Shown piece by piece: positions 62,669-64,000 of a stretch of 64,000 bases of DNA. Under the pieces are notes generated by a model. It made no database searches, was not told the origin of the DNA, and saw nothing but the letters and a program-made list of their open reading frames with translations. Numbering within the stretch: the first letter of the stretch is position 1; the number at the start of each line of letters is the position of its first letter. Source of the stretch: Escherichia phage Turkey5; the sequence record PQ471516.1, one strand, 5' to 3'. Position numbers and translations under genes: made by a program.

Positions 62669-63319
62669 TACAGGATAGTATAGGATACTAAGGACTAGAT
62701 GTGTTCCTAGGGAAGCATTATAACAGGCTTTAACATCTCGTAAAGATGTTAAAATTCAGCCTGGACAAATGCGATCACTAGGATTCTATCTAGGCTGAAT
62801 CCCGTAATCACAAGTACGCATATGTAATCATATATAAACATTTCTATAATCATATCCAATCACAGTAGTGATTAGTATTGAGTACTAGAGTACAGGAATG
62901 TGCACGTTTAATCAAGAACGTATCAGAATGATTCAGTACTGTCCTAAAAGTATTCAGTACTGAAGGTGTCGATATGTCACTAAGTAGGCAGAGGAAGTCT
63001 GCCGTACTTTGTAGTTTCCAAGCTCCTTTTCCATTTTGCAAATTACATCAAAAGTAATCAAAAGTAATCACACAATGATTAGTACTGAATTATTACTTTC
63101 ACCTTAATTCCAGTTACCCCTTGAGGCTCCAGCAAAAAGTTGGTTAGTACTCCATCCTAAATCTCGATCCTAAAAATTTTGGAGTACCTATGAAATAAAA
63201 GTTGGATCTTCGAAAATTGAAATTTACGTTGGGATGATTAGGATTTGTGAACTATAATGTAGTTCAAGTTGGAGTACAGAGTGAGAACAATCTAGAGTAC
63301 TGAAAGATGAAATAACATC

Positions 63320-63347
63320 TTGACAATACAATTCAGTACTGTATAAT
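63320..63347 (+). promoter_or_regulatory. sigma70-type promoter with no downstream ORF (TTGACA-16-TATAAT)
   Basis: TTGACA 63320-63325, TTCAGTACTG spacer, TATAAT 63342-63347; no ORF over 60 aa downstream. Confidence 0.5.
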
Positions 63348-63759
63348 GTTGTACATAGGGTGAGGGAACAGCGGCAACAGTTCCTTAATCTCAGTATCAT
63401 GTCGTGAGACATTACGCAAGTTATATCCTCCTGTGCATAGTACTGGTGGTTATCTCTTGAACCTCATTTTCTCGTAAACTAAACAGTACTGATATTAACA
63501 GAATGGTAGCAGTACTGATATTAATCTAATGCATTATGCCACCAGCACAAGCTGGTGGATTCCCTCTAACAGTATTCAGTATTACATGATGGTCTTCATC
63601 CTCCTGGGGTAACATAGTGAAGGTTATGATGGCAGTACTGAATACTCCTTTCACAAGATAGATCTATGGTATAGTACTGACGGATTTTGGGCGTAGTTAC
63701 CCTGGGTGGATTTTGGACGTAGATATGTCTAGCCCTCCAGAAGTCTGGAAGTAAAGATG

Positions 63760-63870
63760 GCTATCCCTCTAGGCGGCTGGATGGCTAGATTTCTAGATGG
63801 CTGTATGGCTAGACGTTTGGACGGCTAAACGGCTAGATGGTTACACGTCTGGATGTATAGACGGCTAAAT
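63760..63870. repeat. cluster of short direct repeats (GGCTAGA / GGCTAAA units)
   Basis: TGGCTAGAT, ATGGCTAGAC, ACGGCTAAAC, ACGGCTAGATGG, ACGGCTAAAT within ~110 nt of non-coding DNA. Confidence 0.5.
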
Positions 63871-64000
63871 CAAAATTTTTATTTTGTTTTTTCCAATAGT
63901 TCCCCTACCGCGTGGGGATAGTTTCCCCGCAGTATCTGGAGTTAGATTTTTCTGAATCTGGAATCATTATCTTATAAACTGGGGGCAATGTCAACGGCCT

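Follow-up and report, generated by a model that had tools for sequence, protein, structure and literature searches.

Positions 62669-64000 of Escherichia phage Turkey5 as a probable chromosome-end region at the left boundary of the long Asteriusvirus terminal repeat

The last 1,332 nt (positions 62669-64000) of a 64,000-nt stretch of Escherichia phage Turkey5 DNA (record PQ471516.1; this whole stretch is referred to as the window) form a non-coding, repeat-rich interval, which very probably is a cis-acting chromosome-end region straddling the left edge of the ~21-kb direct terminal repeat (DTR) that Asteriusvirus carries. A preliminary description made from the letters alone had listed a replication origin, a packaging signal or a non-coding RNA (ncRNA) locus as candidates; the second of these was borne out in that the chromosome end of the genus maps to position 62983, inside the flagged interval. 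The end itself is already known from databases and one 2026 paper. The interval matches 36 Asteriusvirus records at 82-92% identity over 90-97% of the query, all of them Escherichia or Salmonella jumbo phages (PBECO4, 121Q, G17, fEgEco12 and others) with E. coli or Salmonella as hosts. Judged by these matches, the source phage is an Asteriusvirus jumbo coliphage of the PBECO4/121Q/G17 group. Every annotated relative holds the region in a gap of ~1.9-2 kb with no consistently annotated gene inside, flanked by a run of very small genes on one side and the next set of small genes on the other; the window ends ~700 nt short of the next small gene after the gap. The window covers the first 1,018 nt of the DTR, and the DTR as a whole, its far boundary and the Chi sites within it were observed in the genomes of relatives.

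The region is present twice in records of 366-384 kb. G17 begins and ends with one and the same stretch of 20,668 bp (0 mismatches), and its right end, reverse-complemented, reads AGTAGGCAGAGGAAGTCTGCCGTACT..., which is the window from 62983 onward; vB_Ec-M-J likewise has a DTR in its annotation. We compared nine repeat-bearing records (G17, vB_Ec-M-J, BF17, fEgEco12, CRJP21, ELP-22, E9.1, WPEC3 and WPEC5), deposited independently from seven countries, and found that all nine begin or end at one identical base, AGTAGGCAGAGG..., corresponding to window position 62983. Asteriusvirus DTR ends agree in every base over a span that opens 12 nt ahead of the end and reaches 65 nt or more past it, the window is identical to its relatives across this site, and matches to the terminus block (93-97% identity) are confined to Asteriusvirus. 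In a 12-genome alignment, conservation is 0.41-0.55 at 62886-62978 and exceeds 0.9 from 62979 on. The shared end base together with this jump indicates that 62669-62982 is the tail of the unique region and that the DTR starts at 62983. In relatives, the DTR measures 20,668-21,525 bp (the annotated DTR of vB_Ec-M-J being 21,525 bp), and its first gene begins ~1,690-1,760 nt from the chromosome end. The features around the boundary are:

62669-62982, unstranded: last 314 nt of unique DNA ahead of the DTR, mostly variable among relatives
62749-62838, plus strand: near-invariant island inside the variable flank (conservation 0.91-1.0), 145-235 nt ahead of the cut
62983, plus strand: left physical end, where both the mature chromosome and the DTR have their first base, from the record ends of nine relatives and the CMSTMSU adapter (below)
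62983-63008, unstranded: terminal imperfect palindrome AGTA-GGCAGA-ggaag-TCTGCC-GTACT (arms 62987-62992 and 62998-63003), invariant in all relatives
62983-64000, plus strand: first 1,018 nt of a conserved non-coding DTR leader of ~1.7 kb, from comparison of the leader with relatives

The end is thus fixed at one reproducible nucleotide, and sequencing and digestion data from relatives agree with this. In the CMSTMSU assembly, ...TTCAGTTACGTATTGCT-AAGGTTAA-(25 nt)-CAGCACCT is joined directly to AGTAGGCAG, and the insert includes the flanks of a native barcode. The first part of the insert is Oxford Nanopore adapter sequence (PMC10951985), and the fusion to AGTAGGCAG indicates that enough reads started at the natural DNA end to shape the consensus. 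In this public record (GenBank MH494197), adapter and native barcode replace ~60 nt of phage DNA upstream of the terminus, an assembly artefact. PhageTerm located the ends of fEgEco12 and restriction digests bore them out, the DTR being 20,993 bp long (PMC13070987); those of G17 were assigned from coverage (PMC6563267) and those of Sharanji by PhageTerm, with a DTR of 20,668 bp (PMC11895373). These three published descriptions give repeat length and method only, and contain no leader anatomy, Chi sites, cut motif or promoters. As for other records, the right end of ELP-22 (OR699282.2) lies ~130 nt short of the far DTR boundary of fEgEco12, vB_Ec-M-J and G17 and is probably mis-set, and the authors of the fEgEco12 paper also doubt the 8.3-kb repeat annotated for UE-S1 (PMC13070987).

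The far boundary of the DTR is identical in fEgEco12, vB_Ec-M-J and G17 and reads ...GGGCGGGTAACCT/TAGCGACTTCG, the slash marking the cut. On the bottom strand this is GTCGCTA/AGGTTACC, to be set beside GTCACTA/AGTAGGCA at the left boundary on the top strand. We compared all 9-mers within 40 nt on either side of both cuts in inverted orientation, and the best match between the two boundaries (8/9 positions) was one placed at equal offset from both cuts, which yields the following feature:

62976-62984, plus strand: predicted cut-site motif GTCACTA/AG, cut between 62982 and 62983; sole match in the window

The far-boundary region of JNE01, the closest relative, is only 67% identical yet keeps GGTAACCT/TAGC, leaving RCTA/AG as the common core. 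An inverted motif of this kind would fit the classical model, in which opposite-strand nicks at both repeat boundaries are followed by strand-displacement synthesis. A comparable layout exists in K-like (Herelleviridae) phages, where 12-bp inverted repeats bracket the long terminal repeats (PMC6022877). The Asteriusvirus motif (GTCACTA/AG and GTCGCTA/AG) resembles these in being a short inverted motif at both boundaries of a long terminal repeat, and differs in being shorter, imperfect and degenerate, in an unrelated lineage. Its 8/9 matching positions at the cut, shrinking to a 6-nt core in JNE01, are too few for a firm assignment either way to the class of inverted brackets of at least 12 bp. 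In both groups the motif is a candidate for a role in cutting. On the unique side of the cut, the invariant 90-nt block at 62749-62838 contains an inverted repeat of 7-12 bp, ATTCAGCCTGGA (62754-62765) and TCTAGGCTGAAT (62789-62800), with a loop of ~25 nt and no T-tail, and the block could be a recognition element for end formation.

Overlooked in the preliminary description were the terminal-repeat boundary, the non-local nature of the AGTACT palindromes and of the promoter type, and the Chi octamers. Within the window, the strongest hairpin of the region is a perfect palindrome with an 8-bp stem, made of two Chi octamers:

63539-63558, unstranded: inverted Chi octamer pair CCACCAGC-acaa-GCTGGTGG, both octamers exact, 557-576 nt inside the left end

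Read on the minus strand, 63539-63546 is one Chi arm; the other, 63551-63558, has the exact 5'-GCTGGTGG-3' on the plus strand. The hairpin is annotated as a terminator in the G17 record. Besides this pair, the 63 kb of unique DNA in the window hold one further copy of Chi. We counted Chi in three relatives, including fEgEco12 with its experimentally confirmed ends:

G17: 9 top-strand and 1 bottom-strand (hairpin arm) copies in the DTR; 2 outside, in 53 kb
JNE01: 11 top-strand and 2 bottom-strand copies in the DTR; none in the next 26 kb or in 6 kb upstream
fEgEco12: 10 top-strand and 2 bottom-strand copies in the DTR; none in the next 29 kb

Across the three DTRs, Chi is thus both in excess and biased in orientation (9-11 top-strand versus 1-2 bottom-strand copies). 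In 1,000 dinucleotide shuffles of the G17 DTR, 0.18 top-strand and 0.07 bottom-strand copies are expected (Poisson P ~5e-13), and the G17 sites are embedded in unrelated contexts, both coding and intergenic. A second inverted pair, non-adjacent and 62 nt apart, is present in fEgEco12 (~6619/6681) and JNE01 (+6827/+6889), where G17 has the top-strand copy only. Chi acts in one orientation only (PMC12315714); under this established rule, the top-strand copies would be active on RecBCD that comes in from the right end, and the minus-strand arm at 63539-63546, 557 nt in, on RecBCD that comes in from the left end. The DNA of fEgEco12 was cut as predicted by all restriction enzymes tried (PMC13070987), which makes a heavy base modification that would mask Chi unlikely. 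The loop of the palindrome (63547-63550) is ACAA in 10 genomes and TTGT in 8, and some genomes otherwise identical over 230 nt differ in this loop alone; such recurrent inversion is an expected signature of DNA hairpin or cruciform formation, or of template switching, and suggests that one of these takes place.

Terminally clustered, oriented Chi sites are known from P1 and from the lambdoid phages LLS and MD8, in which they are thought to let RecBCD and RecA recombine the ends. In these phages, as in Asteriusvirus, Chi is well above expectation, lies at terminal repeats or at one end, and is biased to the RecBCD-active orientation. They are, however, temperate, package by headful or cos mechanisms, and LLS lacks a recombinase of its own, whereas Asteriusvirus is virulent, with a genome of ~350-370 kb and exact ends, a Chi island that is restricted to the DTR and has 9-11 of its copies on a single strand, an end-proximal Chi pair that forms a perfect palindrome, and relatives that carry UvsX and gp46/47. 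A literature search found no report of terminally clustered Chi for jumbo phages. The arrangement is statistically overwhelming, and unexpected in a virulent T4-related jumbo phage. We put at about an even chance that the DTR acts as a landing pad for RecBCD, in which the Chi palindrome would be the lone stop from the left end and the last one from the other side, and RecA would be loaded inside the repeat before phage proteins exist.

The leader that carries these sites is conserved and effectively non-coding. Between divergent pairs (e.g., window versus G17), identity is 55-66% in the ORF (open reading frame) array upstream, 88% in the leader and 83-95% in DTR genes; G17 and vB_Ec-M-J share 97-98% of the leader, and divergent pairs range over 87-98%. 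The preliminary description had reported no ORF of 60 amino acids (aa) or more; mechanically, two exist on the minus strand, at 62850-63041 (63 aa, TTG start) and 63224-63412 (62 aa), but neither is kept in 11 relatives, and the region is for this reason effectively non-coding, as had been said. Within the window part of the leader, no ORF of at least 35 aa is common to the 12 aligned genomes, so that comparison with related phages turned up no conserved protein-coding frame. Just beyond the window end, a 99-aa minus-strand ORF was rejected as spurious, its length varying from 59 to 109 aa among relatives and its translation being of low complexity (no protein search was made). No Rfam 15 family matches the region at the gathering threshold, the full JNE01 leader gives chance-level Rfam matches only at E<=1, and the G17 DTR has no Rfam match. 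Homologues beyond Asteriusvirus were not found by distant-mode BLAST; IMG/VR returned 121Q alone and a metagenome scan two near-identical contigs, which leaves a test of RNA covariation underpowered.

The leader contains a perfect promoter pointing away from the end:

63320-63347, plus strand: sigma-70 promoter of consensus sequence (TTGACA-16 nt-TATAAT, 12/12 positions); CAGTACTG directly adjoins the -10
63354-63565, plus strand: predicted untranslated transcript of ~210 nt, from folds, with putative start and end
63966-63994, minus strand: promoter-like TTGACA-17 nt-GATAAT, aimed back at the chromosome end, followed by a GGGGA..TCCCC 5' hairpin

The promoter at 63320-63347, which the preliminary description had recognized as driving no ORF, is kept in 19 relatives, and the leader indeed has no conserved ORF for it to drive. 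Promoter-like matches in 58-64 kb equal the shuffle expectation (25 versus 24.8), so that only the perfect match and the conservation carry weight. The DTRs of relatives place it in a family: in G17, 40 gene-strand sites match the sigma-70 consensus at 10/12 positions or more versus 8 on the other strand, and in fEgEco12 there are 41 promoter-like sites on the gene strand versus 8 on the opposite one. Their layout consists of TTGACA or TTGCAA, ~9 nt, often (C/T)AGTACTG, TATAAT, a TACAT start, and then a 5' hairpin rich in GC ahead of the ribosome-binding site and ATG; the CAGTACTG spacer and the 5' hairpin are the shared features, and the promoter at 63320-63347 carries this whole module minus the ORF. 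By its hexamers, its spacer within the 16-18-nt range and its membership of a conserved, repeated class, it has the sequence traits of a sigma-70 early promoter, and on these traits it is the first, end-proximal member of ~40 stereotyped, putatively early DTR promoters. It reads as a promoter that makes an untranslated leader.

Phage T7 has exact terminal repeats of 160 bp. Ahead of its first gene, a few hundred bp inside the end that enters, strong promoters for the host polymerase point inward; arrays of short repeats are situated close to the repeat boundary, and a protein blocks RecBCD. The promoter described here, 338 nt from the end and directed inward, recalls the A1-A3 promoters of T7, from which the Asteriusvirus arrangement differs in the length of the repeat (~21 kb versus 160 bp) and in the use of Chi proposed here in place of a protein block of RecBCD. 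In the Rak2-like phage CBB, host-type promoters and short early genes likewise reach into the terminal repeat (PMC5259590). A further DTR unit has no gene: it consists of TTGACT-17 nt-TATTAT, ~25 nt, and (A/G)CCCAYNGGGTGC...GTGTATCT, with no Rfam match, and occurs on the gene strand of the G17 DTR at ~+3082, +9882, +13170, +16439 and +19191, with 3 copies on the opposite strand. One leader copy in JNE01 stands just beyond the position of the window end, and two copies have Chi 10-40 nt downstream. This unit may represent a small-RNA family or a set of regulatory sites. Another recurrent DTR element, AGGGTGCNGGAGTGTATC, was not found in the window.

The likeliest alternative is a discrete functional ncRNA of ~200 nt, running from the promoter at 63320-63347 to the hairpin at 63539-63558 and acting early in infection. 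Four structures are predicted along the transcript: a stem-loop at its 5' end (63363-63386), a hairpin with a GUGA tetraloop (63399-63412), one based on CAGUACUG, and the Chi hairpin. Conservation extends to the promoter, the start region and the hairpins; the first two structures are kept across two clades at ~40% divergence, with two compensatory pairs between the clades (UA to GC, CG to AU), and the fold has a z-score of -2.2. Both compensatory changes nevertheless stem from one clade split, giving low power and a covariation term of ~0, the central 60 nt are poorly conserved, the last hairpin has no U-rich tail, a canonical terminator is absent, and no Rfam family matches even at a permissive threshold. 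An identical module of promoter and 5' hairpin also precedes ordinary DTR genes, and the one in the leader is maybe just a gene-less copy. The ncRNA locus proposed in the preliminary description is thus possible but weakly supported, and we regard this alternative as tentative at best.

Along the interval, the repeats of the leader and the associated tracts are:

63047-63070, plus strand: 10-bp tandem repeat ATCAAAAGTA, 2.4 copies, 100% identical (Tandem Repeats Finder); one extra copy in vB_Ec-M-J
63150-63174, plus strand: 13-bp tandem repeat CTCCATCCTAAAT, 1.9 copies, conservation 0.99
63484-63531, plus strand: 26-nt direct repeat in two copies, each opening with CAGTACTGATATTAA, conservation 0.98
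63682-63725, plus strand: 26-bp direct repeat with the leader-specific motif TTTTGGRCG (63685, 63711)
63708-63867, plus strand: phased array of ~20 contiguous 8-bp units, consensus GAYGKCTA (lag-8 autocorrelation, Tandem Repeats Finder)
63868-63896, unstranded: AT-rich tract, 86% A+T, directly after the array
63901-63928, unstranded: GC-rich TCCCC, GGGGA and TCCCC, for which fold prediction gives two alternative hairpins

The first of these is the tandem duplication that had been noticed at about 63048-63067, and the last the inverted repeat placed near 63900-63935. The seven or so iteron-like GGCTA(G/A)A repeats described at 63760-63870 are real, but their number was understated and the features of iterons are mostly missing from what is one longer array. 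Its periodicity stands far above chance (lag-8 autocorrelation 0.53 versus 0.25 +/- 0.035 in shuffles, with 8/8 GGCT in one phase modulo 8), so that the repeats hold under statistical testing. It is unique within 28 kb of G17, and its length varies by whole units (G17, -16 nt; Turkey3, -8 nt). TTTTGGRCG has one to two further copies in G17 and JNE01, at ~+1070 and +1290, and is absent from the other 50-70 kb examined. We presume from this layout that the 8-bp array binds a protein.

A replication origin, the other candidate of the preliminary description, would make the array a set of iterons, the 86% A+T tract an unwinding element and the promoter without an ORF a primer of R-loops, as at T4 oriF and oriG; it would be compatible with a chromosome-end region. 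The phased array is directly adjoined by the AT-rich tract, it is unique within those 28 kb, the promoter is strong and lacks an ORF, and the GC skew, which had been suggested as a check, changes sign at ~62.5-63 kb though genes on both sides lie on the plus strand. This skew change is, however, confounded, since it coincides with the boundary between the DTR and a compositionally odd array of paralogous ORFs. That array (~58521-62668, plus strand) consists of tandem paralogues of 59-69 aa with the consensus MQEHxEYY...LIYRY and 21-34% identity, lies immediately ahead of the terminal-repeat boundary, varies in copy number and sequence among relatives (55-66% identity), and has a negative GC skew despite its plus-strand genes. 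The 8-bp units are moreover contiguous, unlike helically phased iterons of 17-22 bp, and vary freely in copy number; no DnaA box (TTWTNCACA) occurs in the region, and the window is below chance in DnaA boxes; no initiator gene adjoins, the flanking genes being small hypotheticals; and the array lies ~350 nt downstream of the promoter, past a strong hairpin. The defining features of iteron origins thus fail to support this candidate, AT-rich tract and skew change notwithstanding, and we consider an origin unlikely.

The dense AGTACT palindromes of the preliminary description are present (12 copies in 62669-64000, 9.0 per kb) but are no local peculiarity. Across the window (e.g., 365-370 through 63673-63678), this ScaI site occurs 210 times versus 24.5 +/- 3.7 expected, an 8.6-fold enrichment, which makes it a genome-wide trait that is just ~3-fold denser in the flagged region. 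Inside long ORFs it is ~6.5-fold over-represented in all three codon phases, at 2.5 per kb versus 5.3 per kb elsewhere, and in G17 and fEgEco12 it reaches 6.4-6.6 per kb in the DTR but falls to 2.3 per kb over the 29 kb that follow. AGTACT stands just before the -10 in about half of the early promoters of the DTR, but most copies are not at promoters. We rejected the idea that AGTACT is a plain promoter element, as only ~14 of the 210 copies lie next to a good -10 and enrichment extends to ORFs, in all codon phases.

The closest architectural analogue of the interval is the injection-stop region of phage T5, a 1.66-kb untranslated, repeat-rich region at the terminal-repeat boundary that is better conserved than its neighbouring genes and contains paired DnaA boxes within large inverted repeats (10.1101/866236). 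Both are non-coding blocks of more than 1.5 kb at the boundary of a long terminal repeat, and the resemblance of 62669-64000 to the T5 region, which straddles that boundary, would be explained if repeats and palindromes arrested DNA entry after a first segment to let early genes act first. The T5 region, however, follows the pre-early genes and occupies the inner end of the repeat that enters first, whereas here it lies at the outer end, before any gene, where an arrest would deliver none; the paired DnaA boxes typical of T5 are absent, and no sequence similarity outside Asteriusvirus was found. Position and DnaA boxes thus place the Asteriusvirus region outside the T5 class, and a pause of this type is very improbable. 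A functionless remnant, in which early genes have decayed and simple repeats prone to slippage persist within the DTR, might be suggested by the ORF-less promoter module and the variable repeat copy numbers, but is scarcely credible given 87-98% identity across species clusters, which equals or exceeds that of DTR coding sequence and is far above that of the adjacent ORF array, and a terminus block, promoter, Chi palindrome and repeat motifs that are invariant in 19-22 genomes.

Under the preferred reading, a chromosome-end region, the elements would act in succession. During packaging, which we think somewhat more probable than its alternatives to follow this course, the concatemer would be cut after ...CACTA on the top strand, between 62982 and 62983, and on the bottom strand at ...GCTA/AGGTTACC ~21 kb downstream, and the repeat would be duplicated in the manner of T7 or SPO1 to give both virion ends. 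After injection, host RecBCD would enter at the free ends, and the left Chi palindrome together with the 9-11 Chi sites facing the right end would switch degradation to RecA loading, protecting the DNA and driving recombination between the repeats, with circles, concatemers or recombination-primed replication as the outcome; we lean towards this scenario to a similar degree. The promoter at 63320-63347 is likely to be used early by host RNA polymerase, directed inward like the ~40 others, and its product would be an untranslated, structured leader RNA and not an mRNA; that this RNA has a function of its own is doubtful. The 8-bp array, the TTTTGGRCG repeats and the AT-rich tract may form a protein-binding platform, with, for example, the small subunit of terminase, a replication protein or an early protein as partner. 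In sum, the best reading of the interval is that of a genome-end control region for cutting, for the handling of RecBCD and for early transcription.

Several observations weigh against this picture. The window stops 1 kb into the repeat, so that the DTR, its far boundary and the Chi island come from relatives and not from Turkey5 itself. The cut motif is short, was spotted post hoc, is reduced to RCTA/AG in JNE01, and is accompanied by a 1-nt offset in vB_Ec-M-J. Between the array, whose protein partner is putative, and the cut there are 725-885 nt, a greater distance than separates known terminase-binding sites from their cuts. The Chi hairpin lacks a U-tail, and the 3' end of the predicted RNA is hence not fixed by sequence. 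For RecBCD coming from the left end there is just one Chi in the correct orientation (JNE01 and fEgEco12 have two, the second ~6.6-6.8 kb in). Finally, Rak2-like relatives encode the T4-type recombination proteins UvsX and gp46/47, and the phage may be independent of RecBCD or inhibit it early; in view of these proteins, any dependence on RecBCD is perhaps limited to the first minutes of infection.

Elsewhere in the window, six to seven tRNA genes form a cluster (219-4443). Within it, at 1685-1998 on the plus strand, lies a group I intron that matches the RF00028 model over its full length (95 bits).

The Chi palindrome, the oriented Chi island confined to the DTR, the inverted cut motif, the promoter family, and the phased 8-bp array with its flanking motif are new, though of known kinds. 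For annotation, the seemingly empty ~2 kb in Asteriusvirus genomes are to be marked as chromosome end and DTR leader. Among the deposited records, several have an arbitrary permutation or are missing the repeat, and one includes sequencing adapter. Anyone engineering these candidates for phage therapy would do best to leave the leader and the Chi sites intact, since both are probably essential in cis. The cutting, duplication and re-joining of very long exact terminal repeats are poorly understood, and the Chi island and the cut motif make the question experimentally simple. The Chi island likewise opens to experiment how a linear DNA of ~350 kb survives RecBCD on entry. If the proposal holds, the flipping of the loop would reflect a hairpin or cruciform formed in vivo at the Chi palindrome, and RecBCD would be turned from a destroyer into a loader of RecA, by which the genome would be circularized or concatemerized, or its first replication primed.

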